A stretch of 64,000 nt of DNA. Source: a phage. A program made the translations under genes and the position numbers. The stretch is from the NCBI GenBank assembly GCA_036253495.1, contig GCA_036253495.1_4125.1; one strand, given 5' to 3'. Below, one piece after another: positions 18,361 through 40,236 of this stretch (position 1 is its first letter; the number at the start of each line of letters is the position of its first letter). Below the pieces are notes generated by a model. The model was not told the origin of the DNA, did not search any database, and was given only the letters and a program-made list of their open reading frames with translations.

Positions 18361-18990
18361 TTAAACACATATAGCTAGGGGAAGCTCCGTAGTGCAAGCA
18401 TTATACAGGCTTTAACATATGTTGCATATGTTAAAATTCAGCCTGGACAAATGCGATCACTAGGATTCTCCCCAGGCTAAACCCCGTAATCATAAGTAAT
18501 CATATATAAACATTTAAGTAATCATTTATAATCATTGTAGTGAACAGTATTGAGTACTAGAGTGCAGGAATGATTCAGAATGATTCAGTACTGATATCCC
18601 ACTAAGTAGGCAAATGAAGTCGCCCAAAATTTACATAATTTTACAGTACTGAACAATTGCAAAACAAATCATTTCCAATCAAAAGTAATCACGGAATGAC
18701 CAGTACTGAAAACTCCCAATCACCTATTCAAAAAAGTTCAATTTACCCTTTGTCAAAAATCCCGAATACCCATTGGGGAAAATTCCGAATACCCCTTGAG
18801 GCTCCAGCAAAAAGTTGGTTAGTACTCCATCGTAAATCTGGATCGTAAAAATTTTGGAGTACCTATGAAATAAAAGTTGGATCTTCGAAAGTTGAAATTT
18901 ACATTGGGACATATAGGATTAGTGGGATATAATGAGTTTTGAAGAGATACAGAGTATACGATTTCAGTACTGAATAATGGAAGAAATCTA

Positions 18991-19018
18991 TTGACATTAT
19001 GATTCAGTACTGTATAAT
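18991..19018 (+). promoter_or_regulatory. sigma70-like promoter with no downstream ORF
   Basis: TTGACA - 16 nt - TATAAT with AGTACTG spacer; T-run about 115 nt downstream. Confidence 0.5.
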
Positions 19019-19140
19019 GTTCTACATAGAGTGATGAATTGCCGCAAACAATTCAGAGCCTTAGCCCTCCTGTCGTGAGACAGTACAGAAGAGATTGAAT
19101 CCTCCTATGCAGTGGTTCATCTTTGACAACCTCTTTTTTC
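19019..19140 (+). ncRNA. candidate small non-coding transcript
   Basis: starts after promoter 18991-19018; no ORF or SD; internal hairpin CTGTC-gtga-GACAG; ends at CCTCTTTTTTCG. Confidence 0.25.
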
Positions 19141-19150
19141 GTAATATAAA

Positions 19151-19219
19151 CAGTACTGTTATTAACAGAATGGTAGCAGTACTGTTATTAACAGAATGGT
19201 AGCAGTACTGATATTAATC
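19151..19219. repeat. tandem direct repeat (26 bp x 2.6)
   Basis: CAGTACTGTTATTAACAGAATGGTAG x2 then CAGTACTGATATTAATC. Confidence 0.85.
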
Positions 19220-19372
19220 TAATATAATGTTACCATGCAATGTGGTGAATTTCCCTTAACAGTATTCAGTACTACATGATAGTCTTCATCCTCCTAGGGT
19301 AACATAGTGAGGGCTATGATGGCAGTACTGAATACTCCCTTCTTAAAGATAGATCTATGGTATAGTACTGAC

Positions 19373-19413
19373 GGATTTTGGGCGTAGTAACCCTGGGTGG
19401 ATTTTGGACGTAG
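19373..19413. repeat. direct repeat GGATTTTGG(G/A)CGTAG x2
   Basis: two copies 11 bp apart; related motif recurs at ~19745 and ~19950. Confidence 0.7.
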
Positions 19414-19444
19414 AGATGCCTAGCCCTCCAGAAGTCTGGAAGTA

Positions 19445-19592
19445 AAGATGGCTATCCCTCTAGACGGCTGGATGGCTGGATGGCTAGATTTCTAGATGGC
19501 TGTACTGCTAGACGTTTGGACGGCTAAACGGCTAGATGGTTAAACGTCTGGATGTATAGACGGTTAAATCAAAATTTTTATTTTGTTTTTTC
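19445..19592. repeat. iteron-like array plus AT-rich tract (candidate replication origin)
   Basis: about 10 degenerate copies of (T/G)(A/G)GA(T/C)GG(C/T)T in ~125 bp, followed by AAAATTTTTATTTTGTTTTTTCC. Confidence 0.4.
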
Positions 19593-19725
19593 CAATAGTT
19601 CCCCTACCGCGTGGGGATGGTTTCCCCGCAGTATCTGGAGTTAGATTTTTCTGAATCTGGAAACATTATCCCAGTTTTAGCGGGGTATGTCAACCGCCTG
19701 GATGAATATTTTTAAAAAATAATCT

Positions 19726-19808
19726 AGTACTGAATTTTGGGCGTAACTATGCACCCGGTGGGCTAGAGTCTTTCTCGACTTGATGAAATAATTATAGCAG
19801 TACTGAAT
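19726..19808. repeat. ~80-bp repeated intergenic element (copy 1)
   Basis: AGTACTGAATTTTGGGCGTA..GCACCCGGTGGGCTAGAG..TAATTATAGCAGTACTGAA; copies at 19944-20030 and 24041-24127. Confidence 0.6.
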
Positions 19809-19943
19809 TATAAAAGCAATAGCCTAAGTGTAAAAAGTTTTAATTAATTTGCTTGCCATCCTGGGGCGTACTATGGTACTATGATTCAGTACTGAGAAAG
19901 TACTTTGACCCGCTAGGGTGCGGGAGTGTATCCTTTTTAAATT

Positions 19944-20030
19944 TACTGAATTTTGGGCGTAGTTCCGCACCCCCTGGGGTATCCGCTTTCTCGCGTCTAT
20001 GTAGTAATTATACGCTTTTTTAGTACTGAG
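19944..20030. repeat. ~80-bp repeated intergenic element (copy 2)
   Basis: ACTGAATTTTGGGCGTAG..CACCCCCTGGGG..TAATTATACG..AGTACTGA. Confidence 0.55.
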
Positions 20031-20269
20031 TCAATAGCTAAAAACAAAATAATTGAAAATAATTTAACGCGTTTAAACGGCCCGTAAAGCCCTGGATTGT
20101 TGGGAGTGGTGCAAATGTATAGCTTAGGTGTATTAATGCGTTAGAATGCGTCTGAGGCCGTTTTAAGGGTATAGTACTGAATAATTGTACTCACTGGATT
20201 GATTCAGTACTGAATGATAGTACTCCTATATAGAAAGAAAACTATTTTAAAAGTATTTGCAGAAAGTAC

Positions 20270-20297
20270 TTGCATACTATGTTTAAGGGCGTATAAT
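20270..20297 (+). promoter_or_regulatory. early promoter
   Basis: AAAGTACTTGCAT ... TATAAT GTTTTACATC. Confidence 0.6.
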
Positions 20298-20353
20298 GTT
20301 TTACATCGAGACGGGGGAAACGCTCCTAACTCACTTTAATAGGAATTAAAACG

Positions 20354-20716
20354 ATGGCGACTCAAATCACTAAAATCATTGCTAACCTGGTTAACTTTCG
20401 CGAAGAGATGAAAGATCTTCCGGCTGAGACTGTAAAGATTCATATTTCAGCTTATCGGGAATTGATTGCAATGTTGCCGCTTAAGCGTGAACAATACGCC
20501 GCTACTGTGATGCTTGATGCGATGATCCACAAGATGATTGCCAGTGATTTAACGATGGCTTATCAGTACATGGGCGAACTATTTGCGGTGTATAGTAAAC
20601 CAGTGCCTGGGATGGAAAGTACAGAAGTATTGCACGGCTTAAACTTAAAACAAGATGCATGGGATAATATGCCTCGTTTCCTGGTATGGGCTGACAGTGG
20701 CAAGATTTACGAATAA
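20354..20716 (+). CDS. hypothetical early protein
   Basis: 120 aa; promoter TTGCAT/TATAAT upstream; SD AGGA. Confidence 0.65.
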   Translation: MATQITKIIANLVNFREEMKDLPAETVKIHISAYRELIAMLPLKREQYAATVMLDAMIHKMIASDLTMAYQYMGELFAVYSKPVPGMESTEVLHGLNLKQDAWDNMPRFLVWADSGKIYE

Positions 20717-23699: not shown

Positions 23700-23706
23700 A
23701 AAGTAC

Positions 23707-23734
23707 TTGCAATTAGTTTTCAGTACTGTATAAT
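23707..23734 (+). promoter_or_regulatory. early promoter + 5' stem-loop
   Basis: TTGCAA ... cAGTACTG TATAAT; hairpin GGGGAGAA/TTCTCCC. Confidence 0.65.
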
Positions 23735-25112: not shown

Positions 25113-25595
25113 ATGGCTAACGTAAAATCATTCATCAAAGCACTGGTAGCAAATGAAACTAACGTAGCGGCAGAAATCCTGGCCGAACTGGATAGCGATA
25201 CCATGAAAGCAGTACGCAACAATTTTAACATTGCGTACAGCGAAGCGAAAGAACTGCAAGCTAATAAAGCGGCAGCACTTGAAGCTGAGAAGGCAGCACG
25301 CGAAGCTGAATTGCAGAAAACGATTGAAGATATTAACGCCGCCGTCGCTGGGCTTGATCTGGAAGTAGTTACCGAAATGGCACGTAAAGCCCTGGCAGCG
25401 AAATACGGGGAAGACAAGCCAGAAGTAAAAGCTAAAAAATGGATTCAAGAACGTGTGACGGTTGTACTGGATAATGGCGAGGAATACACTGTACCAGTAC
25501 GCGGTAACTGCATTGCGGTAGTACTGGATGCTATCAAAGAAAGCGGATTGACTCGCGAGGAATGGATCGAATCTCATCGCAAAGTTGAAGCATAA
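25113..25595 (+). CDS. H-NS-like protein candidate (coiled-coil N-terminus, H-NS-like C-terminal domain)
   Basis: Ala/Glu/Lys-rich N-terminal half; C-terminus LDNGEEYTVPVRGNCIAVVLDAIKESGLTREEWI resembles H-NS [33 protein letters not shown]; long 5' leader; terminator. Confidence 0.45.
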   Translation: MANVKSFIKALVANETNVAAEILAELDSDTMKAVRNNFNIAYSEAKELQANKAAALEAEKAAREAELQKTIEDINAAVAGLDLEVVTEMARKALAAKYGEDKPEVKAKKWIQERVTVVLDNGEEYTVPVRGNCIAVVLDAIKESGLTREEWIESHRKVEA

Positions 25596-25615
25596 CAATT
25601 AAAGTACTGAATCAC

Positions 25616-25646
25616 TAGCCCACCTTAAACAGTGGGCTTTTTTTGT
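25616..25646 (+). terminator. rho-independent terminator
   Basis: AGCCCAC-cttaaac-AGTGGGCT + TTTTTTT. Confidence 0.75.
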
Positions 25647-25663
25647 GTCTATAGTATCCCAGT

Positions 25664-25733
25664 CCACCAGCACCGCCTAGAATCGATTCTAACGCATTAA
25701 ACTGATTATCTGATGCATCGCCCTAGCTGGTGG
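25664..25733. repeat. inverted repeat bounded by Chi octamers
   Basis: CCACCAGC (25664-25671) and GCTGGTGG (25726-25733); inner inverted CGATTCTAACGCATT / CGTTAGAATGCGATT. Confidence 0.6.
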
Positions 25734-25798
25734 CGTTAAGGTCGTTAGAATGCGATTGAGAGCGTTTAAAGTATTTTGCAAAAAGTAATAAAAAGTAC

Positions 25799-25826
25799 TT
25801 GCACGATAAAGAGATTAGCGTATAAT
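25799..25826 (+). promoter_or_regulatory. early promoter
   Basis: AAAAAGTACTTGCAC-16-TATAAT. Confidence 0.6.
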
Positions 25827-25871
25827 TAATTACATCAAGGCGAGACACCTTAACTAACTGAGGATATAAAG

Positions 25872-26024
25872 ATGAATACTTATGAACTGGATTGTTTCAC
25901 TTTACAAGTAATGTCAGTATGCAGTAAAAAAGATTGGTCATCAAAGGAATTTAAAGCAGTTATCGCGTGTGCAAAACACGGCAAGACTATCAATGAAACG
26001 GCATCAATCATTGATAAACTTTAA
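25872..26024 (+). CDS. small hypothetical protein (50 aa, not in ORF track)
   Basis: promoter TTGCAC/TATAAT upstream, SD GAGGA; MNTYELDCFTLQVMSVCSKK... Confidence 0.5.
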   Translation: MNTYELDCFTLQVMSVCSKKDWSSKEFKAVIACAKHGKTINETASIIDKL

Positions 26025-26032
26025 AAAATAGT

Positions 26033-26061
26033 TTGACAATAGTTTTAAGTACTGCGATAAT
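26033..26061 (+). promoter_or_regulatory. early promoter
   Basis: TTGACA-17-GATAAT. Confidence 0.55.
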
Positions 26062-26094
26062 ACATACATCAACTACTGAATAGGAATCAAAACA

Positions 26095-26322
26095 ATGGCT
26101 ATCGTAATCACTCGCGTAACTGGTACTACTGGCAATTCTTCTACTGTTGCTGTAATTACTAATAAGAAAGGTGCGGAATTGCATTTTGCAATGGATACCT
26201 GGGCAGTGAATGAGTTCGGTCAGTGGGCTAGTGTAGAATACATTGAATCCTATCAAGTGCCATCGATTAGCTTAACTGATTTAGGTGTAGAACGTATCCT
26301 TTGCCTGGATGAATTAAATTAA
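26095..26322 (+). CDS. hypothetical early protein
   Basis: 75 aa; promoter TTGACA/GATAAT upstream. Confidence 0.6.
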   Translation: MAIVITRVTGTTGNSSTVAVITNKKGAELHFAMDTWAVNEFGQWASVEYIESYQVPSISLTDLGVERILCLDELN

Positions 26323-26330
26323 AAAAGTAC

Positions 26331-26358
26331 TTGCAAAGTAAATCAAATAAAGTATAAT
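26331..26358 (+). promoter_or_regulatory. early promoter + 5' stem-loop
   Basis: TTGCAA-16-TATAAT; hairpin GGGGAGAA/TTCTCCCC. Confidence 0.65.
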
Positions 26359-26408
26359 ACATTACATCAAGGGGAGAAATGGTTCTCCCCACTAAGAGGA
26401 AACGAAAA

Positions 26409-26552
26409 ATGAAAACTTGTCAATGTGGTAAAAAATCTATTACTGGTTTAAAGCGGGGCGTTGCTCTTTGTCAGTATCACTATAATGCTCAAGTATGGGG
26501 TAAAGAGTGGGCCGACCGGGTTGAAGCATCAAAGAAAGCAAAAAGTAAGTAA
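26409..26552 (+). CDS. small Cys-rich protein (47 aa, not in ORF track)
   Basis: MKTCQCGKK...CQYHY; promoter + hairpin + SD AGAGGA upstream. Confidence 0.5.
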   Translation: MKTCQCGKKSITGLKRGVALCQYHYNAQVWGKEWADRVEASKKAKSK

Positions 26553-26571
26553 AAATATTATCACAGTACTA

Positions 26572-26600
26572 TTGACATAGATTGATAGTACTGGCATAAT
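26572..26600 (+). promoter_or_regulatory. early promoter (duplicated cassette, copy 1)
   Basis: TTGACA-17-CATAAT; same 90-bp cassette at 26857-26947 and 30738-30827. Confidence 0.6.
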
Positions 26601-26643
26601 AGATTTTATCAAGACAACACATATTAATTTAAGGAATACTAAA

Positions 26644-26856: not shown

Positions 26857-26875
26857 AATTATTATCACAGTACTA

Positions 26876-31634: not shown

Positions 31635-31642
31635 AAAAGTAC

Positions 31643-31933: not shown

Positions 31934-31941
31934 AAAAGTAT

Positions 31942-31969: not shown

Positions 31970-32020
31970 TAATTACATCAAGGGGAGAAGTTTTCTCCCC
32001 ACCATATAAGGGTAACAGTT

Positions 32021-32110
32021 ATGCACATGAATCCGTTCATAGTAGTAATTGCAATCATTATGGCAGTACAGGCCGTATTAGTTTACTTAAGCAAAGCAGG
32101 AGTTATCTAA
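32021..32110 (+). CDS. small hydrophobic membrane peptide (29 aa)
   Basis: MHMNPFIVVIAIIMAVQAVLVYLSKAGVI; promoter + hairpin upstream. Confidence 0.4.
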   Translation: MHMNPFIVVIAIIMAVQAVLVYLSKAGVI

Positions 32111-32111
32111 A

Positions 32112-32285
32112 ATGATCCATGTAGAATTATCAGTACTGAAAGATTTGTTTTATCGGATGGGTACTACTGGCGAATATCCGAAGGGTGATACCGCAAAACT
32201 TTTTGTATCACTCGACTTATGGCAACGCGAACAATTAGTAACGTCCTGGCGTAAAGGTAAAGCCGACAAGGGGGCCGTAGCATGA
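32112..32285 (+). CDS. small hypothetical protein (57 aa, not in ORF track)
   Basis: MIHVELSVLKDLFYRMGTTGEYPKGD...; preferred over antisense track ORF 32150-32332. Confidence 0.45.
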   Translation: MIHVELSVLKDLFYRMGTTGEYPKGDTAKLFVSLDLWQREQLVTSWRKGKADKGAVA

Positions 32286-32431
32286 AAGAATACATTTTCG
32301 AAGTTACGTTTTTGGGTAAAGGTATGCATCAACTGATACGGTCCAGCGGATACAGTGTTAACCAGGCGTGGAATAACTTAAAACAAATGTACCCGAACGC
32401 TATCACATATCGCAACCCTCGCGAGGCATAA
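32282..32431 (+). CDS. small hypothetical protein (49 aa, not in ORF track)
   Basis: MKEYIFEVTFLGKGMHQLIRSSGYS...; ATGA overlap with upstream ORF. Confidence 0.45.
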   Translation: MKEYIFEVTFLGKGMHQLIRSSGYSVNQAWNNLKQMYPNAITYRNPREA

Positions 32432-32446
32432 AATAAATTGAAAAAA

Positions 32447-32479
32447 GGGATTGACTCCGGTCAGTCCCTTTGCTATTAT
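32447..32479 (+). promoter_or_regulatory. composite terminator-hairpin/promoter element (copy 2)
   Basis: AAAAAAGGGATTGACTCCGGTCAGTCCCTTTGCTATTAT. Confidence 0.55.
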
Positions 32480-32578
32480 ATACGCATAGAAACAAATTAG
32501 CCCACCGGGTGCATAAATGTATCTATTGTTTGCTGGTGGAGGTATTATCTAGTACTGAAAACTATTTTTAAAAAGTAC

Positions 32579-32606
32579 TTGCATTGTACTTAGAATCAAG
32601 TATAAT
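32579..32606 (+). promoter_or_regulatory. early promoter (upstream of structured leader)
   Basis: TTGCAT-16-TATAAT GTTTTACATCAG. Confidence 0.6.
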
Positions 32607-32612
32607 GTTTTA

Positions 32613-32694
32613 CATCAGGACGGGGAATGAAACAAGTAACCCCGTTAAGTAGTCCAGGAGTAAGACATAAGAAAACCTCCCCTGATAAAATAGT
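32613..32694 (+). other. conserved structured 5' leader RNA between tandem promoters (copy 2)
   Basis: ACGGGGAAtgaaacaagtaaCCCCGT then CCAGGAG...CCTCCCCTG. Confidence 0.5.
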
Positions 32695-32722
32695 TTGACA
32701 ATAGAAAGTAAACGAGTATAAT
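32695..32722 (+). promoter_or_regulatory. second (proximal) promoter
   Basis: TTGACA-16-TATAAT before ATG 32755. Confidence 0.55.
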
Positions 32723-32754
32723 ACTTACATCAACCACTGATAAGGAAACATAAA

Positions 32755-33030
32755 ATGCGGATTCTACTGACAGCTAACGAAATCGAGCAAGTACTGACTA
32801 CTAACCTGGAACAATGGAAACGTGATGCAGATATCCAGGCGGTACAATGGCTTAACGATAAGTTAACGCCAGATGACTTAAGCAAGATTGTTGACCCTCA
32901 ATTCTATGAAGATATTCACGACACGGCTTTAAGCGTCGAGGATGTACTTGATAAGCACTACATTGATATTGATTTGCAGGTTTACGGTCGTAAAAACTTT
33001 ATCACTATTCACGACATTTACAATACTTAA
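32755..33030 (+). CDS. hypothetical early protein
   Basis: 91 aa; tandem promoters and structured leader upstream. Confidence 0.65.
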   Translation: MRILLTANEIEQVLTTNLEQWKRDADIQAVQWLNDKLTPDDLSKIVDPQFYEDIHDTALSVEDVLDKHYIDIDLQVYGRKNFITIHDIYNT

Positions 33031-33033
33031 GTA

Positions 33034-33061
33034 TTGACAAAGTATCTTAGTACTGTATAAT
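33034..33061 (+). promoter_or_regulatory. early promoter + 5' stem-loop
   Basis: TTGACA-16-TATAAT; hairpin GAGGGGAA/TTCCCCTC. Confidence 0.65.
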
Positions 33062-33115
33062 AGTTTACATCAAGAGGGGAATGGTTCCCCTCCTAACAAA
33101 GAGAGAGAAATAAAA

Positions 33116-33298
33116 ATGGCTAAGTGCACTATCTGTAAGAAAGAAATCGTATTAGTTCCAAGTGCCCGTGAACGTGCCGCTCGGTTCGGTGGCAAAGCGT
33201 CAGACTATACAAAAATGTTTACTGCCCATGCAGATTGCCAGGTAGCAAAACGTTCACAAGAAAGCGTAGAATTAATGCGTAAACTTTCCAAAAAATAA
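33116..33298 (+). CDS. small zinc-ribbon-like protein
   Basis: 60 aa; CTIC...HADC motif; promoter + hairpin upstream. Confidence 0.6.
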   Translation: MAKCTICKKEIVLVPSARERAARFGGKASDYTKMFTAHADCQVAKRSQESVELMRKLSKK

Positions 33299-33301
33299 GT
33301 A

Positions 33302-33329
33302 TTGACAAAGTATCTTAGTACTGTATAAT
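33302..33329 (+). promoter_or_regulatory. early promoter + 5' stem-loop (duplicate of 33034)
   Basis: TTGACA-16-TATAAT; hairpin GAGGGGAA/TTCCCCTC. Confidence 0.65.
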
Positions 33330-33385
33330 AGTTTACATCAAGTGAGGGGAATGGTTCCCCTCCTAACTAAAAGAGAGAAATAAAA

Positions 33386-33709
33386 ATGGCTATGATCCTC
33401 ACCCAGAAAGTAGAACTGAAAATTGTAACATCCTTTGACATTAAAGTTAATCGGTGGACTGATTCACACGGCAATACTTACCACTCTTGCTACGTGTCTG
33501 CGTTAATTGGCGACCGCTGGGAGGATTTAGGACATGAAACCTTTACTTACGGTTACGGCACACAAGGCGAATACACGGGCTTGGAGATCATTAAAGAAAC
33601 GGTTATAGGTTTCAACCCGAAAGAAAAAGTTATTCATCAAATAGAAAAAGAGATCAACAAAGAAATAACAGTTCGCTACAACGATGTAAAACGTAAGAAA
33701 GACATGTAA
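33386..33709 (+). CDS. hypothetical early protein (paralog of 26948-27271)
   Basis: 107 aa; upstream promoter/hairpin nearly identical to that of 33116. Confidence 0.7.
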   Translation: MAMILTQKVELKIVTSFDIKVNRWTDSHGNTYHSCYVSALIGDRWEDLGHETFTYGYGTQGEYTGLEIIKETVIGFNPKEKVIHQIEKEINKEITVRYNDVKRKKDM

Positions 33710-33731
33710 TAGAATCCATTTAAAGTACTAT

Positions 33732-33760
33732 TTGACATTGCCCAGATAGTACTTTATAAT
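33732..33760 (+). promoter_or_regulatory. early promoter
   Basis: TTGACA-17-TATAAT. Confidence 0.6.
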
Positions 33761-33804
33761 AGACTCTAGCTTGTAGTACTAACTTAACTAATAGGATGTA
33801 TACC

Positions 33805-34200
33805 ATGATTACTAAATTCTACGCTACCCGTGAAGCTGCCCGTATTGTTGCACGCGAGGAAGGAGCAGCATTTAAAGACATGGGCACGACCGCACCGAAA
33901 GGCCAACGCTGGGCCGTACAGTTCAAAGAAATCTCTGATATTGTGAATTCACCTGAACCAGTACTAACAGCAGCAGAACAGAAGAAAGCTGATGAACTGT
34001 CAGCAGTACTTAACGCTCAAGATGAATTTATCGCGGGTTCTGATATCAAAGTACAGGTAAATGCTAATGCATGGACTCACGCGGATCACCTGGCTAACCT
34101 GAAGCGTCCAAGTGAACTGGTTCGCAACCAGAAAGAGATCCGACACGACCGTAAGGGTAATCGTGTAACAGTATACAGTAAACGCCGCCAGGTTATCTAA
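33805..34200 (+). CDS. hypothetical early protein (paralog of 21133-21399)
   Basis: 131 aa from MITKFYATREAAR; SD AGGA; terminator downstream. Confidence 0.65.
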   Translation: MITKFYATREAARIVAREEGAAFKDMGTTAPKGQRWAVQFKEISDIVNSPEPVLTAAEQKKADELSAVLNAQDEFIAGSDIKVQVNANAWTHADHLANLKRPSELVRNQKEIRHDRKGNRVTVYSKRRQVI

Positions 34201-34221
34201 TAACTTGCAGTACTAACAACA

Positions 34222-34250
34222 CGGCGGGATCAGTTCCCGCCTTTTTTATA
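34222..34250 (+). terminator. rho-independent terminator
   Basis: GGCGGGA-tcagt-TCCCGCC + TTTTTT. Confidence 0.75.
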
Positions 34251-34262
34251 GGATAAACTAAA

Positions 34263-34517
34263 ATGATTAAGGTACAACTATCTAAAGATAATATCTTGCG
34301 GGTACACTATAAAGCCCCTCAGAGAATCATCACAAAGGCCGTACAGCTTGCTAATGAGTTTATTAATGGTAATCTATTGCCCAGGAAGTTAAGCAACGGC
34401 AAACTGCGTGTAATCGATGTAGACACTAACAACAGGATAGTAATCGAGAATACCGGAAAGATAAACCTCTATGAACACCAACAATATAATAAGAAAATAA
34501 AACTAATATCACGTTGA
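34263..34517 (+). CDS. hypothetical early protein
   Basis: 84 aa; SD AGGA. Confidence 0.6.
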   Translation: MIKVQLSKDNILRVHYKAPQRIITKAVQLANEFINGNLLPRKLSNGKLRVIDVDTNNRIVIENTGKINLYEHQQYNKKIKLISR

Positions 34518-34542
34518 CAGTACTCAATTGTTTTAGTACTAT
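34514..34542 (+). promoter_or_regulatory. early promoter
   Basis: TTGACA-17-TACTAT. Confidence 0.55.
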
Positions 34543-34570
34543 GTATCTATACCAACACGGGAGAAACAAA

Positions 34571-34789
34571 ATGAAATTATCTAAAATCGAAAAGAAAACT
34601 ATTGATGAAGCAGTTAAGCACGGTTATACCTTTCGTAATGATTCACATTTTACCAATTTTCAACAAGGGTATCGTACTATTAAAAAACTAATTGACAAAG
34701 GTTTATTAGTTAAAGTAGATAACGGTAACGGCGTGGAGTATCAGCCAACACAAGACGCATTATCTTTAAAGAAATATGCAATTATCTAA
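34571..34789 (+). CDS. hypothetical early protein
   Basis: 72 aa from MKLSKIEKK; promoter TTGACA/TACTAT; SD GGGAGA; track extension rejected. Confidence 0.6.
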   Translation: MKLSKIEKKTIDEAVKHGYTFRNDSHFTNFQQGYRTIKKLIDKGLLVKVDNGNGVEYQPTQDALSLKKYAII

Positions 34790-34818
34790 TTGACAGTACT
34801 CAAATGTTTTAGTACTAT
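34790..34818 (+). promoter_or_regulatory. early promoter (duplicate of 34514)
   Basis: TTGACA-17-TACTAT. Confidence 0.55.
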
Positions 34819-34854
34819 ATGTACATACCAACACGGAATAACTGGAGAAACAAA

Positions 34855-35082
34855 ATGATTAATATCTTAGAACGCATCAAAGAAACTACTACGCTGGTGG
34901 ATCTACTCAATGTACTGACTTTTAAAGTAACTCGGTTTAGTACTCCTGAATTTATCAACCTCATTGATAGTAAAGGTGAATACCGCATCACTATTGAAAA
35001 TGGTCGTGCTAATGTATTCAGTACTAAATCAGGTAAAACCGCAATTCATTCTGTAATTGCAAATAAAACTGTTGCAATCTAA
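34855..35082 (+). CDS. hypothetical early protein
   Basis: 75 aa from MINILERIK; duplicated promoter as upstream gene. Confidence 0.6.
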   Translation: MINILERIKETTTLVDLLNVLTFKVTRFSTPEFINLIDSKGEYRITIENGRANVFSTKSGKTAIHSVIANKTVAI

Positions 35083-35100
35083 TTAGTACTAACATATAAT
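35072..35100 (+). promoter_or_regulatory. promoter + 5' stem-loop (kinase-like gene)
   Basis: TTGCAA-17-TATAAT; hairpin GCAGGGA/TCCCTGC. Confidence 0.55.
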
Positions 35101-35151
35101 AGTCACATCAAGGCAGGGAATACCTCCCTGCTATCTTAAAGAGTAAATGCA

Positions 35152-35736
35152 ATGCGTAATTATACTAAATTCATCCGGGCACTGGCAGAAATGGAAACTA
35201 ACAAAGAGATCCTTACAGCTTGTCGGTTGGCTGGTCTGGAGATCATCGGGGCCGGATCATCCCGTATCGTATTCGCTTTAAATGATCGGTTAGTGATTAA
35301 GGTCGCTAATTGTGACGCTGGCGTAGAACAAAATGAAACAGAATGTAAGGTATGGAATTTTTTAGATTATGACCGCCCTCACCTTAAACAGTACTTTGCT
35401 AAGGTGCATATGCATTTAAGCGATCCTGATAATATGTTTATTGTTATGGATCGTTTGAGTACTGCAAGCAAAGGCAGTGTAAAGCACGTTAACGCTTGCA
35501 ATGAATTAAAGTACAATGTCAAACGTAACACTATTGAACGCCAACACCATTTCGCTGATGCACTACAACACGTTGATGATACCTTATCAACACTAACGAT
35601 AAGAGATATCAGAAAGCAGAACATAGGCCAAGATCGCAATGGCCTGATTAAAGTACTTGATTACGGTTTAACCCGCAATATCTGGAATCAGTACTATAAA
35701 CAACGCGACGTAAAAGCCGTAACTATAACACGATAA
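35152..35736 (+). CDS. protein kinase-like protein (candidate small Ser/Thr or atypical kinase)
   Basis: 194 aa; Gly-loop IIGAGSSRIVF, Lys motif LVIKV, catalytic-loop-like IRDIRKQNIG, DFG-like VLDYG. Confidence 0.5.
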   Translation: MRNYTKFIRALAEMETNKEILTACRLAGLEIIGAGSSRIVFALNDRLVIKVANCDAGVEQNETECKVWNFLDYDRPHLKQYFAKVHMHLSDPDNMFIVMDRLSTASKGSVKHVNACNELKYNVKRNTIERQHHFADALQHVDDTLSTLTIRDIRKQNIGQDRNGLIKVLDYGLTRNIWNQYYKQRDVKAVTITR

Positions 35737-35750
35737 AAAAGATTAAAAAA

Positions 35751-35783
35751 GGGATTGACTCCAGTCAGTCCCTTTGCTATTAT
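35751..35783 (+). promoter_or_regulatory. composite terminator-hairpin/promoter element (copy 3)
   Basis: AAAAAAGGGATTGACTCCAGTCAGTCCCTTTGCTATTAT. Confidence 0.55.
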
Positions 35784-35878
35784 ATAGTCATTGAGAGATA
35801 ACTCACTGACCCATAGGGTGCATAAGTGTATCTATAATATAAGTATTGTCAGTACTGAAAACTATTTTAAAAAAGTAC

Positions 35879-35906
35879 TTGCATTGTACTTAGAATCAAG
35901 TATAAT
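35879..35906 (+). promoter_or_regulatory. early promoter + 5' stem-loop
   Basis: TTGCAT-16-TATAAT; hairpin GGGGGAAAC/GTTCTCCC. Confidence 0.65.
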
Positions 35907-35958
35907 GTTTTATATCGAGAGGGGGAAACGGTTCTCCCTGGCAATAAGGAATAAAATC

Positions 35959-36180
35959 ATGACTACAATGACTTGCATTTACGCTTCCAATCTTCTGAAT
36001 GATGCGGCCTTTAATGTTGATTCAGAATATCAATGTTATCGGGATGAAAATAAAAAAGTTTTTGTAGTTGATAATAATGGTTTCCATATTGAATTGCAAT
36101 CCGGCTTCACTGGCGTTGATGGTAAATCAGTATGGGGCGTACAGGATGATAAAGGTACATATCATTTTAAACGTAATTAA
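35959..36180 (+). CDS. hypothetical early protein
   Basis: 73 aa from MTTMTCIY; promoter + hairpin; track extension from 35791 rejected. Confidence 0.6.
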   Translation: MTTMTCIYASNLLNDAAFNVDSEYQCYRDENKKVFVVDNNGFHIELQSGFTGVDGKSVWGVQDDKGTYHFKRN

Positions 36181-36183
36181 GTA

Positions 36184-36211
36184 TTGACAAAGTATCTTAG
36201 TACTGTATAAT
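36184..36211 (+). promoter_or_regulatory. early promoter + 5' stem-loop
   Basis: TTGACA-16-TATAAT; hairpin GGGGAGAA/TTCTCCCC. Confidence 0.65.
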
Positions 36212-36263
36212 AGTTTACATCAAGGGGAGAATAGTTCTCCCCGATACTAAAAGGAATAAAATC

Positions 36264-36671
36264 ATGACTACTACTAATCAAGCTCGGTCCATCGCCAACG
36301 ATAAAAATCATGCTGCAATGGTCGCTGGTTACATTGAAGCTATGCAATTCAGTACTGTACACAATGAGAACGGCGAATACCTGGAAGATTATGAATTATC
36401 AGAGCAAGCCCATCAAGCGGCAGTGATTGCATGTTCACGTTTCCTTGCTGTACATGGTGAAGATATGGAAACAGTACAAAAACACCATAATCCTGATTAT
36501 ACTTATAATCATGCAGGTCATGATCTCTTTCTTACTCGCGAAGGTCACGGTACTGGCTTTTGGGATCGTGATATCGGTCACTATGACGATGTATTCACTA
36601 AGTACTGCGAAGAAATCAACGTTTGCGATCCCTATGTAGGCGATGATAATCTAATCTATATGGGCGAATAA
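36264..36671 (+). CDS. hypothetical protein with His/Asp-rich motif
   Basis: 135 aa; HAGHDLFLTREGHGTGFWDRDIGHYDD suggests metal-binding/hydrolase-like site (speculative). Confidence 0.65.
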   Translation: MTTTNQARSIANDKNHAAMVAGYIEAMQFSTVHNENGEYLEDYELSEQAHQAAVIACSRFLAVHGEDMETVQKHHNPDYTYNHAGHDLFLTREGHGTGFWDRDIGHYDDVFTKYCEEINVCDPYVGDDNLIYMGE

Positions 36672-36677
36672 AAGTAC

Positions 36678-36705
36678 TTGACAAAGTATATCAGTACTGT
36701 ATAAT
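36678..36705 (+). promoter_or_regulatory. early promoter + 5' stem-loop
   Basis: TTGACA-16-TATAAT; hairpin GGGGAGAA/TTCTCCCC. Confidence 0.65.
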
Positions 36706-36758
36706 AGTTTACATCAAGGGGAGAATAGTTCTCCCCACCAATAAAAGGAAACAACATT

Positions 36759-37031
36759 ATGTCAAGCTACTCCGCTACTATGATCATTAAAGATATGAAC
36801 GGTAATCCTACTTCTGCTGGTGGATCATTTGGAAACATTAACTTAGATGGTCGGTTATCAATGGAATCAGCCATCAATGCAGCGAAAGAAGTTTTTAAGA
36901 ATGAATGTACTGTAAGCAAGCTAGATTATATGGGCTTCGCTATCGAGAAAACTAAACGTTTTGTGGACTACAAAAATCCACTAATGATTGATACTAACCT
37001 GAAAGCTAACGAAGTGGAATACTTATTATGA
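36759..37031 (+). CDS. hypothetical early protein
   Basis: 90 aa; promoter + hairpin upstream. Confidence 0.65.
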   Translation: MSSYSATMIIKDMNGNPTSAGGSFGNINLDGRLSMESAINAAKEVFKNECTVSKLDYMGFAIEKTKRFVDYKNPLMIDTNLKANEVEYLL

Positions 37032-37219
37032 CAGTTGAAGAAGTTAAAAAAGTACTGGCAGTACTACGCTATCATAATCATTGCAAGGTGAAGAATGATC
37101 CTGATTATGTTGATTCATCCCTGGAGGAAGACACCTTAAACGCGATAAGCCATATGCAAACATTAGCAAAGCGTATGACCGAAAAGAATAGGCCGGACTA
37201 TATCGGAAATAAAATTTAA
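37028..37219 (+). CDS. hypothetical early protein
   Basis: 63 aa; ATGA overlap with upstream ORF. Confidence 0.55.
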   Translation: MTVEEVKKVLAVLRYHNHCKVKNDPDYVDSSLEEDTLNAISHMQTLAKRMTEKNRPDYIGNKI

Positions 37220-37226
37220 AAAGTAC

Positions 37227-37254
37227 TTGCATTGTAGTTAGATTAAAGTATAAT
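37227..37254 (+). promoter_or_regulatory. early promoter + 5' stem-loop
   Basis: TTGCAT-16-TATAAT; hairpin GGGGGAAA/TTTCCCCT. Confidence 0.65.
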
Positions 37255-37306
37255 GTTTTATATCGAGAGGGGGAAATGGTTTCCCCTCAAGTCCAGGAGA
37301 TACACC

Positions 37307-37570
37307 ATGAACACTATCGAAATCACTATTAATGCTCACGTATACGACAACGTAGTACTGCAAACTACTATGACCGCTAACGATACCAGTACTTTGCGGA
37401 ATACTGTTATAAGTGCTGTATGTGCCGCTATCGGTGATGTATCCCTGGAAAATGCAGAACACATCAACAACGGTTTCACTATGTGCAAACGTGATAACGC
37501 AAAACATATCATCGTAGAAGGTTACGGCGGTGTAGAATATAACCTTTATATGAAAAAAGTACTTGCATAG
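37307..37570 (+). CDS. hypothetical early protein
   Basis: 87 aa from MNTIEITINAH; 3' end overlaps next promoter. Confidence 0.6.
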   Translation: MNTIEITINAHVYDNVVLQTTMTANDTSTLRNTVISAVCAAIGDVSLENAEHINNGFTMCKRDNAKHIIVEGYGGVEYNLYMKKVLA

Positions 37571-37590
37571 TAACTAAAACAAAGTATAAT
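37563..37590 (+). promoter_or_regulatory. early promoter + 5' stem-loop
   Basis: TTGCAT-16-TATAAT; hairpin GGGGGAG-atatc-CTCCCCC. Confidence 0.65.
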
Positions 37591-37638
37591 GTTTTGCATA
37601 GGGGGAGATATCCTCCCCCACTAATAAGGAGTACTACG

Positions 37639-37863
37639 ATGGCTAATCATGATGAACTGATTCGGGAAGTAGCTAACCTGGCGGCAGAAAAGAAATCATT
37701 TGATTCTATCTATAACACCGCTCACCGTGATTCAGTACTGGCATGTAATCAGGATCAAAAAGATGAACTGATCGCAACCTATCATGAAGCATGGAAGTAT
37801 TACCGTCAATGGGAGAAAGAAGAAAAAGCATCAACCATAAGAGGATTAAATAATCTAGTATAA
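37639..37863 (+). CDS. hypothetical early protein
   Basis: 74 aa from MANHDELIREV; SD AAGGAG. Confidence 0.6.
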   Translation: MANHDELIREVANLAAEKKSFDSIYNTAHRDSVLACNQDQKDELIATYHEAWKYYRQWEKEEKASTIRGLNNLV

Positions 37864-37869
37864 CAATAA

Positions 37870-37900
37870 AAGGGGATGATAATATCCCCTTAATAATTTC
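37870..37900 (+). terminator. possible terminator (weak U-tract)
   Basis: GGGGAT-gataat-ATCCCC + TTAATAATTT. Confidence 0.4.
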
Positions 37901-37915
37901 TATAATAGGTTAACA

Positions 37916-38182
37916 ATGAAAAAGAAAACAACATATCGCTATAATAAAAATTATCAATCCGTTGTATTAGATCACTCTATGCTCCCGCTCGTTGTCCCTG
38001 CCGTTGGTGTAGTCTATCAATCCATATACTGGTCAAGGAAACAACAAAAGTACTTAAAAGGCCCACTAGCACGTTATGAGGGTAACGGTGTATGGTCCGA
38101 TCCGTTACATCCAATCACTACGCGTTATATTGAATATTTTCCTTATTGTGACTACATTGAAATACATCCTAAATTTAATTGA
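37916..38182 (+). CDS. hypothetical early protein (paralog of 38263-38520)
   Basis: 88 aa; shares NG.W.DP..PI and YIE motifs with next gene. Confidence 0.6.
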   Translation: MKKKTTYRYNKNYQSVVLDHSMLPLVVPAVGVVYQSIYWSRKQQKYLKGPLARYEGNGVWSDPLHPITTRYIEYFPYCDYIEIHPKFN

Positions 38183-38187
38183 TAGTA

Positions 38188-38215
38188 TTGACAGTACTAA
38201 CTGATAGTGTATAAT
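38188..38215 (+). promoter_or_regulatory. early promoter + 5' stem-loop
   Basis: TTGACA-16-TATAAT; hairpin GGGGGAATACTCCCCC. Confidence 0.65.
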
Positions 38216-38262
38216 GTTTTGCATAGGGGGAATACTCCCCCAATATTAAAAGGGGAATCATC

Positions 38263-38520
38263 ATGGAACAATTCACACAATATCGGGTAAATCCTCAAGC
38301 TATGGCCTACGTAGAAGACCATAAAACGTTACCAGTACTGCAACCAGTTAAAGGCCGTATCTATCGTGGCCTTGCATGGAATACGGCCCAGGATGGATAT
38401 AAAACCGTTGCCGTGGGGATGTATTGCGGGAATGGTGAATGGTTTGATCCTAACAATCCGATTGCACTTGACAGTACTGAAAAAATGAAATGGGCCGACT
38501 ATATCGAGGATATCTCATAA
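38263..38520 (+). CDS. hypothetical early protein (paralog of 37916-38182)
   Basis: 85 aa; promoter + hairpin GGGGGAATACTCCCCC upstream. Confidence 0.65.
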   Translation: MEQFTQYRVNPQAMAYVEDHKTLPVLQPVKGRIYRGLAWNTAQDGYKTVAVGMYCGNGEWFDPNNPIALDSTEKMKWADYIEDIS

Positions 38521-38525
38521 AACTA

Positions 38526-38554
38526 TTTGACAGTACTATCATATAGTGTATAAT
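38526..38554 (+). promoter_or_regulatory. early promoter + 5' stem-loop
   Basis: TTGACA-17-TATAAT; hairpin GCGGGGGAA/TTCTCCCGC. Confidence 0.65.
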
Positions 38555-38609
38555 GTTTTACATAGAGCGGGGGAATAGTTCTCCCGCCAATAGTTTGGAG
38601 TAAAACATT

Positions 38610-38810
38610 ATGTCAATCGCTATCGCCCTGGTTGAAGTACTGAAAGAAGCTAAAGCTAACCTGATCGACGTAAAGATCCAGGAACTACAATCCGGCTTAA
38701 TCGGCTGTACTTGTACCGCTGGTGGGGCGACAGATTATCGTGAATTCGAATCACTCGAATCTATGGTTCGGTATCTTACAATGATCGTGGAAGATTGGAA
38801 GATCATCTAA
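38610..38810 (+). CDS. hypothetical early protein
   Basis: 66 aa; promoter + hairpin upstream. Confidence 0.6.
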   Translation: MSIAIALVEVLKEAKANLIDVKIQELQSGLIGCTCTAGGATDYREFESLESMVRYLTMIVEDWKII

Positions 38811-38828
38811 CAAAAAAGAATAAAAAAA

Positions 38829-38861
38829 GGGATTGACTCCGGTCAGTCCCTTTGCTATTAT
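38829..38861 (+). promoter_or_regulatory. composite terminator-hairpin/promoter element (copy 4)
   Basis: AAAAAAAGGGATTGACTCCGGTCAGTCCCTTTGCTATTAT. Confidence 0.55.
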
Positions 38862-38974
38862 ATACGCATAGACAAAAACTAGCCCACAGGGTGCATAGGT
38901 GTATCTAAAATATATAGTTAATAACGGTGAGTAACTATCTGCTGGTGGAGTGAAAACTATTAATAAAAAACTAT

Positions 38975-39002
38975 TGACAAAGTATAGCAGTACTGCAATA
39001 AT
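38975..39002 (+). promoter_or_regulatory. promoter
   Basis: TTGACA-16-AATAAT. Confidence 0.5.
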
Positions 39003-39055
39003 GTATCTCGTAGGGCGGCAATGGTGCGACGGTCCACAAAGTTAGGAGATTCAAA

Positions 39056-39388
39056 ATGAGTACTTCAATCGCTATCGTAAACGCTTTCATCCGTACCAAT
39101 GTTTCATCTGTATTCATTGACGGGCTGGATCGGGAAGTAGAATACTCAATCATTATCGCACAAACTGCAAACGGTGCTCGGTATATCCTCAATGATAGTG
39201 AAGCAAATCACTACTACTACACTAAAGCTACTGGCTTTAAACGCATCGATGCGGACGTAGTATACGCTAAGATGAATAAGCTGGTAGACAAGATTAACGC
39301 TAAAGGTACTATCGATTTACAGTACTGGACCGAAACCGATCCAGAATATGGATCACATCGCTACCTGAATCCAGGTATTAAAATGTAA
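39056..39388 (+). CDS. hypothetical early protein
   Basis: 110 aa; SD AGGAGA; promoter TTGACA upstream. Confidence 0.65.
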   Translation: MSTSIAIVNAFIRTNVSSVFIDGLDREVEYSIIIAQTANGARYILNDSEANHYYYTKATGFKRIDADVVYAKMNKLVDKINAKGTIDLQYWTETDPEYGSHRYLNPGIKM

Positions 39389-39395
39389 AAAGTAC

Positions 39396-39423
39396 TTGCA
39401 TAGTACTTAGTAAAGTGTATAAT
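39396..39423 (+). promoter_or_regulatory. early promoter + 5' stem-loop
   Basis: TTGCAT-16-TATAAT; hairpin GAGGGGGAAA/GGTTCTCCCTC. Confidence 0.65.
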
Positions 39424-39477
39424 GTTTTACATAGAGAGGGGGAAATGGTTCTCCCTCCTAAATTAAGGAGTTTTATC

Positions 39478-39879
39478 ATGACCTTCTCAATCACTTCTTA
39501 CGCTGACGTTTTAGTACTGGCTCGGACTTTTGGTAAAGATGCACTGGAGTACGCTGTAAGTAATGGTACTATCCAACCGGAGCAGTGCCGCATCATTGGA
39601 AACTGCAAACGTTGGGCGGTATCCAATACTATTGCACTGGAAAACTTCAACGATGGCAACAATGAATATTCTGTTGATGTAGTATTCGAAGCCGTTGATC
39701 TCGGCGGTATCTATAACACTAACCTGAATGATGTGCGTATCGTTCGCACGGGGTTCGGTGCTTATGATGTATCTATTCGTGAAGCTATGAACACCGGATA
39801 CATTAGCAAGGACTTACTTGCTCACATCATGCAGCTGTGGACGGAACGTAACGAAGCACGCACTATCTTAGGACTGTAA
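39478..39879 (+). CDS. hypothetical early protein
   Basis: 133 aa from MTFSITSYADV; promoter + hairpin; track extension rejected. Confidence 0.65.
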   Translation: MTFSITSYADVLVLARTFGKDALEYAVSNGTIQPEQCRIIGNCKRWAVSNTIALENFNDGNNEYSVDVVFEAVDLGGIYNTNLNDVRIVRTGFGAYDVSIREAMNTGYISKDLLAHIMQLWTERNEARTILGL

Positions 39880-39947
39880 GCATTACACATCACCAAACAT
39901 CATAGGCCGCTCTCTAGCGGCCTTAACTATATCAGGAGTACACACAC

Positions 39948-40157
39948 ATGATCTATACAGTATACAGCGTTCTAGGTACTATTGCAGGCGTACACGATAA
40001 CGTCAATGATGCTATGCGTACAGTACTGCAACAGGTTCCACTAAAGCCTAAGACTATTAAGCAGATGACAGCACGACTAACCAGGGCAAAGGCTGGCGGT
40101 GAAGTCTGGCAGGACTACGCGGATACGCAGATTATCATTGCAGTAAGTAATGATTAA
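39948..40157 (+). CDS. hypothetical protein
   Basis: 69 aa; SD AGGAG; strong terminator downstream. Confidence 0.6.
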   Translation: MIYTVYSVLGTIAGVHDNVNDAMRTVLQQVPLKPKTIKQMTARLTRAKAGGEVWQDYADTQIIIAVSND

Positions 40158-40199
40158 TGAATTAAATGATTCAGTACTAAAACTATTAGTCAGAAAATA

Positions 40200-40236
40200 A
40201 TCGGTGCATTTTTAAAATGCATCGTTTTTTATTTTA
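40200..40236 (+). terminator. rho-independent terminator at end of early region
   Basis: CGGTGCATTTT-ta-AAATGCATCG + TTTTTTATTTT. Confidence 0.7.

Follow-up and report, generated by a model that had tools for sequence, protein, structure and literature searches.

AGTACT, a selected signature word of an enterobacterial jumbo-phage clade, and an ACT-free operon in Asteriusvirus

Phages normally purge short palindromes, and the question raised by a 64-kb stretch of phage DNA (contig GCA_036253495.1_4125.1; hereafter the window) is why one of them, AGTACT, is so abundant in it. Megablast places the window in a RaK2/121Q-like jumbo coliphage of the genus Asteriusvirus (~350 kb, GC ~35%), with phages A4, CRJP21, 121Q, G17 and PBECO4 as the top matches. 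A preliminary description of the window had drawn attention to the abundance of AGTACT and of a 12-bp palindrome, TTCAGTACTGAA, between 18.5 and 40.2 kb, and both observations hold. Positions 18,500-40,200 contain 147 copies of AGTACT against 6.8±2.5 in dinucleotide shuffles (maximum 17), the window as a whole contains 271 against 20.96±4.3 (maximum 32), and TTCAGTACTGAA is found in the window as 5 exact and 21 one-mismatch copies, 26 where 0.28 are expected. AGTACT is the sole enriched hexamer palindrome of the window, at 13x; the runner-up reaches 1.8x and many others are depleted. The preliminary description also had the word scattered through the intergenic DNA of 18.5-40.2 kb; it is indeed present there but is not confined to it, as most sites are genic and the rest of the window still carries 3.6/kb where 0.36/kb is expected.

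1-64,000, both strands: window-wide AGTACT enrichment, 271 sites, 188 of them genic (3.5/kb) and 83 intergenic (8.2/kb)

Codon or dinucleotide bias, which had been named as the explanation that Markov controls might reveal, is ruled out as the cause by Markov models together with synonymous and codon-order shuffles. For 18,500-40,200 the Markov expectation is 21.6 at order 2 and 56 at order 3, a model that already includes the tetramers of AGTACT itself, against the 147 observed. Within genes, 190 copies compare with 64±6.5 after shuffling of synonymous codons and 26±5 after shuffling of codon order. Genic sites occupy all three frames (57/39/49 in + strand genes) and both gene orientations, the metagene profile along genes is flat with no positional bias, and intragenic sites in the window lack promoter context. 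The word leaves its mark on the encoded proteins: across the window, 88 of 163 Ser-Thr dipeptides are written AGTACT (22 expected), and the dipeptides Ser-Thr (163 vs 87 expected) and Val-Leu (170 vs 96) are both raised ~1.8x while their reversals, Thr-Ser and Leu-Val, are not enriched. TAC makes up 80% of the tyrosine codons that follow AG, but 41% of tyrosine codons overall. The shuffles and the dipeptide excess therefore locate selection on the DNA word, at a strength sufficient to alter protein sequence. An RNA-level role for the general enrichment was also considered and rejected, as half-sites are symmetric with respect to the gene strand, in a test that is weak because the word is palindromic.

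Around the word lies a weak extended consensus, t-t-c-AGTACT-g-a-a, in which the flank preference is symmetric: 46% of sites have C at -1 and 45% have G at +1, with T/A farther out. All NGTACT and AGTACN half-words are enriched, the GTACT 5-mer 5.6x, and the ACT trinucleotide is at 1.15x genome-wide, that is, not enriched as such.

To place the window in its genomic context, genome-wide statistics were taken from the complete A4 genome, and other relatives were sampled in parts. A4 contains 922 AGTACT against 101 expected (9x), and each 10-kb bin is enriched, with a density of 6-8/kb near the repeat described below that falls to 1.1-2/kb in the tail genes. The fraction of Ser-Thr dipeptides spelled AGTACT, which we use as a constraint-free measure of enrichment, is 31-78% in each 20-kb bin of A4 against 11-17% expected. 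Outside the early region spacing in A4 is Poisson (coefficient of variation 0.91-1.01), with 2.6/kb in spacers and 2.4/kb in genes, and intragenic copies show no regular spacing or helical phasing. Other palindromes in A4 are avoided, for example GTCGAC (1 found, 30 expected), ACCGGT (1, 30), CTCGAG (1, 22) and GACGTC (4, 30) in 40-159 kb, and GCGC is absent from 119 kb. This depletion is ordinary restriction avoidance and makes the excess of AGTACT conspicuous. AGTACT as a restriction-modification target under avoidance (it is the ScaI/Eco255I site) was rejected on the same grounds, being 13x over expectation in the window and 9x in A4, with GTCGAC, ACCGGT, CTCGAG and GACGTC depleted 7-30x.

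The enrichment extends to phages of other enterobacterial hosts:

RaK2 (host Klebsiella): 119 AGTACT observed, 12 expected
GAP32 (host Cronobacter): 177 AGTACT observed, 8.6 expected
CBB terminal repeat (host Pectobacterium): 115 AGTACT observed, 5.8 expected

In the capsid-gene surroundings of 46 IMG/VR relatives, all of those with at least 91% capsid identity are enriched and one at 72% is weakly so, while at 70% capsid identity or below AGTACT is not enriched and no substitute palindrome is found. By this boundary, the trait is derived within the enterobacterial clade. Where DNA of A4 and RaK2 can be aligned (71% identity), 20 of 62 sites (32%) are kept in position and a further 29 are private to RaK2, both phages being enriched ~10x; density is conserved and positions turn over. 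A 50-kb sample of E. coli K-12 contains 3 copies (0.06/kb). AGTACT is, in short, a selected signature word of the enterobacterial RaK2/121Q/GAP32 jumbo-phage clade.

The interval singled out by the preliminary description coincides with what appears, from record ends in relatives, to be a long terminal repeat. The records of CRJP21 and E9.1 begin at window position ~18,627, position 1 of G17 corresponds to ~40,190, and the segment between is present twice in all records longer than 370 kb, the two-ended repeat thus being a feature of relatives' records rather than of this isolate. A terminal redundancy of ~20 kb has been inferred from coverage for G17 (PMC6563267), and a 22.5-kb repeat with support from pulsed-field gel electrophoresis was reported for CBB (PMC5259590). 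The doubled segment and the record ends identify 18.6-40.2 kb as a probable T5/SPO1-style terminal repeat of small early genes; rightward genes only are found from ~18.6 kb on, after minus-strand RCC1-repeat genes in the left part of the window.

18,627-40,190, + strand: direct terminal repeat and early host-takeover region, ~21.6 kb, small early genes, densest AGTACT (6.8/kb)
23,702-23,734, + strand: early promoter with two sites, AGTACT at 23,702-23,707 fused to the -35 TTGCAA and AGTACT at 23,722-23,727 followed by g and TATAAT, then a GC stem-loop
8,470-8,488, - strand: terminator hairpin of an RCC1-repeat gene, built from the motif (GCCAGTA-loop-TACTGGC)

The terminal repeat holds 37 strong sigma-70-type promoters, and 35 of them contain AGTACT. 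Twenty have the word directly against the -35 hexamer and 24 have it in the spacer, with both positions occupied in 9; paired copies within one promoter are 19-24 bp apart. Twenty of the spacer copies end 1-3 nt before the -10, at -19 to -14, a register distinct from the canonical TGn at -15/-14. The same design recurs in relatives, with AGTACT in 10 of 11 promoters of RaK2 and 4 of 5 of CBB as well as in GAP32, and the RaK2 spacer copies (9 of 11 promoters) all end 1-3 nt before the -10. The CBB paper remarked only on an 'UP-like element' ahead of RpoD-like promoters (PMC5259590). A GC stem-loop is the usual downstream partner of the 37 promoters, and cassettes consisting of a strong sigma-70 promoter, a GC-rich stem-loop (e.g. 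ggggagaaatggttctcccc) and a small gene are repeated over 18,627-40,190. The word also adjoins terminators (AGTACTGAAT...), and the hairpin of the RCC1-repeat gene at about 8,480 resembles those of other RCC1 genes near 10,940 and at 13,254-13,267 (copies at 13,254/13,262). The contexts listed in the preliminary description, beside the -35, just before the -10 and in the RCC1 hairpins, are therefore real. Near the left end of the terminal repeat, a gene-poor stretch of ~1 kb contains three tandem 26-bp repeats (19,152-19,229), each beginning with the motif (AGTACTGTTATTAACAGAATGGTAGC).

Besides the block described next, a single long stretch of the window escapes the enrichment, so that the window has two stretches without AGTACT. 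It comprises about a dozen genes just beyond the terminal repeat, has a counterpart in A4 (a 4.5-kb gap, 25,255-29,750) and is likewise exempt in G17. The segment may have been acquired later, or selection for AGTACT may not act on it.

40,179-43,977, + strand: AGTACT-exempt segment of tandem overlapping ~70-aa genes, with 0 AGTACT, GTAC at background and ACT normal

The second stretch is of a different kind, as here the trinucleotide ACT itself is missing from one strand:

45,514-45,542, + strand: conserved promoter at the head of the ACT-free unit, TTGACA-N17-TATAGT, predicted start site ~45,549, in 5/5 Asteriusviruses
45,794-45,799, + strand: sole ACT-containing site from the start site to 52,267, a complete AGTACT, 30 nt ahead of the first small gene's stop codon
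45,800-52,267, + strand: ACT-free stretch of 6,468 nt and ~16 genes, 0 ACT on the + strand (150 expected), AGT normal
51,928-52,097, + strand: near-invariant non-coding element of ~170 nt at the right edge of the unit, with the inverted repeat CTGAAAAACA...TGTTTTTCAG

The block is present in all five Asteriusviruses examined. Homologous gaps measure 6,981 bp in A4 (31,575-38,554), 7,649 bp in G17 (5,831-13,478 of the retrieved segment), 7,511 bp in 121Q (2,589-10,096 of the retrieved segment) and 7,012 bp in Salmonella phage SD-6_S16 (3,064-10,072 of the retrieved segment), and G17 shares just ~35% of the block at the nucleotide level. Downstream of the predicted start, all 9 ACT of the five phages lie within full AGTACT words in the first ~620 nt, after which none occurs for 6.5-7.6 kb; the AGTACT at 45,794-45,799 is kept at +237 to +248 in the five. 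In the A4 genome the gap is unique, spanning 136 expected occurrences where any other trinucleotide gap spans at most ~22. No comparable gap was found in the syntenic 50 kb of RaK2, another 50 kb of RaK2 or 30 kb of GAP32. A sequencing or planted artefact is excluded, as the block recurs in five genomes that were deposited independently and diverge by 3-15% as well as in gene content.

Within the block all frames and spacers are purged: ACT accounts for 0% of threonine codons against 44% elsewhere, the frame-spanning forms NAC|T and A|CTN number 0/115 and 0/38, and threonine itself falls to 4% of residues from 7%. A single substitution would create ACT at about 1,100 positions, so its absence is actively maintained. 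AGTAC remains as dense as elsewhere (8.5/kb) and is followed by A (46), G (7) or C (2), never T; the plus strand has 1 TACT against 76 AGTA, and GTACT reaches 8.5/kb on the antisense strand and zero on the sense strand. Promoters inside the block keep the architecture of the terminal repeat with AGTACA in place of AGTACT. CTA, CTG and CTC are at 0.34-0.49x in the unit and TACA at 2x; the loss of CTN goes beyond the removal of A-preceded copies, so the avoided element may extend past ACT.

The left edge of the zone falls at the predicted start site of the conserved promoter in 5/5 phages, and because the purging is also strand-specific, independent of frame and independent of gene content, these sequence features point to a transcript-linked constraint. 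By analogy with known motif-free messages, the simplest reading is an ACU-free RNA that an ACU-specific endoribonuclease would be unable to cut, a tentative proposal to which we give less than even odds. Several points weigh against it. The right edge lies 44-170 nt into the next gene and not at a clear terminator, terminator-like and promoter-like sites occur within the unit, and we know of no ACU-specific RNase. To our knowledge, the ACT-free operon is the largest natural trinucleotide-free transcription unit.

The element at 51,928-52,097 also has an 18-bp AT palindrome and is kept even where flanking genes differ. It has no Rfam match, its invariance leaves covariation not assessable, and a search of IMG/VR returned 121Q as the sole match. 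The ~16 proteins of the unit are ORFans, with no Pfam or PADLOC matches, PHROG families of unknown function and one uninformative homologue.

A concrete candidate for the cleavage of ACU is encoded in the terminal repeat:

34,263-34,517, + strand: early gene for an 84-aa RelE/ParE-superfamily toxin-like protein

Its product matches Pfam PF24732 (E=6.1e-11, 42.6 bits against a cutoff of 24.4), as do all of its homologues, and the K64-1 homologue carries the RefSeq name 'YafQ-like ribonuclease toxin'. The AlphaFold2 model has a mean predicted local distance difference test (pLDDT) score of 89.8, and the best Foldseek matches (YoeB, YafQ, RelK, HigB and ParE2) are weak (E 0.08-0.7, template-modelling score 0.33-0.51); an invariant Y70-E71-H72...Y75 (C-terminal YEHQQY) is suggestive only. 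All Rak2-like jumbo phages retain the gene in their early or terminal-repeat region; their hosts include Escherichia, Klebsiella, Salmonella, Cronobacter, Pectobacterium, Serratia, Yersinia, Erwinia and Xanthomonas. On the basis of these models, the protein is a candidate early endoribonuclease. RaK2, however, has the gene without an ACT-free unit, and known RelE-type enzymes cut in frame on the ribosome and would not purge other frames.

What, then, reads AGTACT? The preliminary description had taken the enrichment to imply a function, and this is strongly supported by selection at the DNA level, conservation across three genera and fixed places in early promoters. New relative to it are the genome- and clade-wide scope, the identity of its interval as the terminal repeat, the exempt segment and the ACT-free operon. 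Of the three functions that it offered, a site for a phage transcription factor or nucleoid protein fits best. We propose that AGTACT is read by a clade-specific protein that binds double-stranded DNA, marks the DNA of the phage and governs its early promoters, with a probability of roughly 0.4. A reader of double-stranded DNA is suggested by the palindromy with symmetric flanks, the bracketing of the -35 element in three genera and the uniform scatter. The reader is probably phage-encoded and dimeric; we infer its DNA-binding nature, its phage origin and repression alike.

The proposed function would have two layers. In the positioned layer, the word stands beside the -35 and/or at -19 to -14 of nearly all strong early promoters in the ~21.6-kb repeat, and paired copies about two helical turns apart would place the bound reader on both sides of the -35 element, where it would regulate early transcription and most plausibly shut it off. 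In the diffuse layer, ~2.4-2.6 sites/kb are spread uniformly and at random over genes and spacers, and a site density 40-130x that of the host would concentrate the reader, or what it recruits, on phage DNA. A second, Asteriusvirus-specific constraint would override the word in 45,549-52,267, where the sense strand has no ACT and sites become AGTACA; the resulting ACU-free RNA may be spared by an ACU-specific endoribonuclease, which could be a toxin of the host or a shut-off enzyme of the phage. A bolder version joins the two into a sequence-based identity code, in which a palindrome present in about a thousand copies is linked to an ACT/ACU-specific nuclease that one ACT-purged Asteriusvirus operon escapes. 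Here a phage protein would tell phage from host DNA in RaK2-like phages, which build no protective nucleus, and the nuclease would be made by the phage for host and early shut-off or by the host as a defence. We consider this version doubtful.

Several observations count against a DNA-binding reader acting at promoters. A search for DNA-binding domains among 30 open reading frames of the terminal repeat recognised none, and an AGTACT-reading protein was not found there. The register of the word beside the -35 is variable (fused upstream, fused downstream as TTGAC-AGTACT, or 1 nt off), which fits density maximisation as well as an operator. Tenfold intragenic enrichment is untypical of classical transcription-factor sites, so the diffuse layer needs an additional function, and a methyltransferase or other enzyme could recognise the palindrome equally well. 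Finally, the forbidden ACT is the exact half-site of AGTACT, a coincidence of ~1 in 32 if the two are unrelated; an account with two agents leaves this match unexplained, and it hints at one strand-reading agent. As for the suggestion that the word acts as a promoter UP or extended -10 determinant, its fixed promoter positions agree with it, but ~70% of sites are intragenic and Poisson-spaced and the spacer copy is off the TGn register.

The enzyme most readily imagined in place of such a reader is a phage-encoded methyltransferase or hypermodifying activity, with AGTACT as an epigenetic self-mark that is read by proteins or blocks a host nuclease. The palindrome with its symmetric flanks resembles type II methyltransferase sites, ~80% of phage genes are without known function, RaK2 DNA is heavily methylated, with Dam and CpG methylation reported (PMC3622015), and orphan viral methyltransferases of mollivirus act on AGTACT (PMC7253447). 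A modification target had been among the preliminary proposals and is possible. However, the two annotated DNA methyltransferases, a small Dam (PF05869) and an intein-interrupted Dnmt3/HhaI-like C5 enzyme, fit methylation of GATC and CpG, motifs absent from AGTACT, so neither is an AGTACT candidate. Modification alone also gives no reason for the tenfold density or the promoter placement and would still require a reader, and we hold this explanation unlikely. The C5 enzyme is the 632-aa 'DNA-cytosine methyltransferase' of A4 (292,647-294,545), split by an intein with a LAGLIDADG homing endonuclease; its length had raised the idea of a multispecific methyltransferase, rejected because it is in fact a single C5 enzyme. 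If instead a single strand-specific agent reads ACT, with GTACT/AGTACT as its best site, on single-stranded nucleic acid, the match between forbidden trinucleotide and half-site follows directly. Trinucleotides are recognised by T4 primase, whose primers are pentamers, and the sites of chlorella-virus nickases are 3 nt long; a T4-type primase, a nicking enzyme or a single-strand nuclease could be such an agent. In the primase version a cryptic 3' T and a 5-nt primer make up a 6-nt template word (compare GTT/GCT of T4), and as GTAC is self-complementary, selecting GTACT on both strands yields AGTACT automatically. The ACT-free unit would then be a region whose sense strand must never be primed or cut, in keeping with the enriched half-words and with antisense GTACT persisting inside the unit where sense copies do not, and uniform Poisson spacing suits a replication or repair signal. 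This is a serious rival, yet it explains the purging and the promoter layer less well: missing priming sites merely lengthen an Okazaki fragment and leave absolute purging unexplained, the left boundary at the transcription start in 5/5 phages points to transcription and not replication, the positioned promoter copies have no role, ACT itself is at just 1.15x genome-wide, and a phage would hardly be expected to enrich its own genome for a nuclease site. On balance we think it distinctly unlikely.

The reader need not belong to the phage. A conserved protein of the Enterobacterales (nucleoid-associated, acting in the cell cycle, or RNA polymerase at promoters) might read the word, with the phage exploiting or titrating it; the trait is limited to phages of Enterobacterales and common to their genera, and the word sits in sigma-70 promoters. 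SlmA is the obvious example, as its site, GTGAGTACTCAC, carries AGTACT at its core. The flanks here are random with respect to the SlmA consensus, though, and -1/+1 prefers C/G, the opposite of the G/C of SlmA. Mimicry of SlmA sites was rejected, with flank mismatches peaking at 5 of 6 and GAGTACTC absent from the window and present 4 times in A4. Intragenic sites without promoter context and the very few sites in the host itself also speak against a host protein, which we regard as improbable. Least probable of all, in our view, is molecular drive, whereby Vsr-like biased repair, gene conversion or homing would turn near-cognate words into AGTACT during co-infection. The uniform, Poisson-like distribution over all sequence classes and the fast positional turnover recall the accumulation of uptake sequences. 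But all nine classes of one-mismatch neighbours stand at or above 1.0x (AGTACA/TGTACT at 3.1x), unlike the CTAG-type depletion left by Vsr repair, and the fixed promoter positions, the 4.5-kb exempt segment and the same word in three genera are unexplained. Vsr-type repair in particular was discarded, as its precursor words AATACT/AGTATT are at 1.23x and so not depleted.

The proposed DNA-binding reader finds partial parallels in known systems. In form, the diffuse layer is closest by analogy to the uptake-sequence class: like the DNA uptake sequences (DUS) of Neisseria and uptake signal sequences (USS) of Haemophilus, and like Chi and KOPS, AGTACT is a short word far above chance genome-wide and genic in all frames, and it shares with uptake sequences the distortion of codons and dipeptides, the retention of density while positions turn over, and the potential to discriminate self from foreign. 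It differs in being a 6-bp viral palindrome at 2.6-8/kb, against ~1/kb, with no orientation bias and an added promoter layer, and it implies no uptake or translocation machinery. In function, the closest analogy would be TF1 of SPO1, another large virulent phage whose long terminal repeat is full of strong early promoters for the host polymerase. TF1 is a phage protein that favours phage DNA, binds sites overlapping promoters and damps early transcription, the role proposed here; it discriminates through hydroxymethyluracil, however, and no TF1/HU-like reader was found here. We know of no genome-wide tenfold word enrichment in SPO1. The early cassettes resemble the promoter and stem-loop (PeSL) cassettes of T4-type phages, in which a strong sigma-70 promoter and a stable stem-loop precede small early genes; we know of no description of PeSLs in which a palindrome enriched across the whole genome is embedded.

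For the ACT-free unit, the relevant comparisons are ACA-less transcripts with MazF and GCU-less genes with MqsR, where likewise one sense-strand trinucleotide is wholly missing in every frame, here over a unit that begins at a predicted start site. The Asteriusvirus unit differs in its size (~6.5-7.6 kb, ~16 genes), in its presence in five phages despite gene turnover, in the trinucleotide, ACU, and in tolerating ACU solely within AGUACU in the first ~620 nt. The first-step-transfer DNA of T5, which lacks EcoRI sites, is similar in its absolute regional avoidance of a nuclease site and in its setting of long terminal repeats and staged early expression. There, however, the avoided word is a 6-bp double-strand restriction site in the first-entering DNA, whereas here it is a strand-specific trinucleotide avoided ~5.6 kb beyond a repeat that is itself ACT-rich.

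Other features of the window and of A4 may be noted. Eight tandem RCC1-repeat paralogues of ~370-470 aa each occupy 4,562-14,463 on the minus strand, and relatives annotate them as 'DNA condensation protein'. Packed arrays of like-sized genes lie to the right of the ACT-free unit (52,466-63,759, 110-210 aa) and before the terminal repeat (14,530-17,977, products of ~60-75 aa), and both resemble paralogue families by appearance. An Rfam search of the window returned no known RNA families. A4 has a transfer RNA (tRNA) cluster at 304,019-307,088 with Ser(GCU), Ser(UGA), Thr(UGU), Gly(UCC), Met and Asn; the Ser(GCU) tRNA reads AGT, a codon inflated by the motif, and together with Thr(UGU) is compatible with motif-driven codon demand, though not specific to it.

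Full-text literature searches found no description of AGTACT with these phages or of the ACT-free block, and AGTACT goes unmentioned in the papers that present the genomes of Sharanji, phAPEC6, RaK2, CBB and G17; neither feature appears to have been described before. Both point to sequence-reading proteins. One palindrome at ten times chance over 350 kb signals a strongly selected DNA reader, and the cost of the word is visible in the proteins, where Ser-Thr and Val-Leu occur at almost twice the expected frequency. The jumbo phages concerned are phage-therapy candidates, and for the question of how their DNA is protected and organised in the absence of a phage nucleus, AGTACT offers a direct experimental handle on phage DNA readers. 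The density of ScaI/RsaI sites and the ACT-free block provide simple diagnostic signatures of the clade and the genus, respectively, and from the ACT-free operon one would predict an ACU-specific nuclease, which is open to a direct search. If the identity code were true, these phages would present a new kind of viral self-marking together with a new trinucleotide-specific nuclease, for which a natural 7-kb immune operon would serve as the readout.

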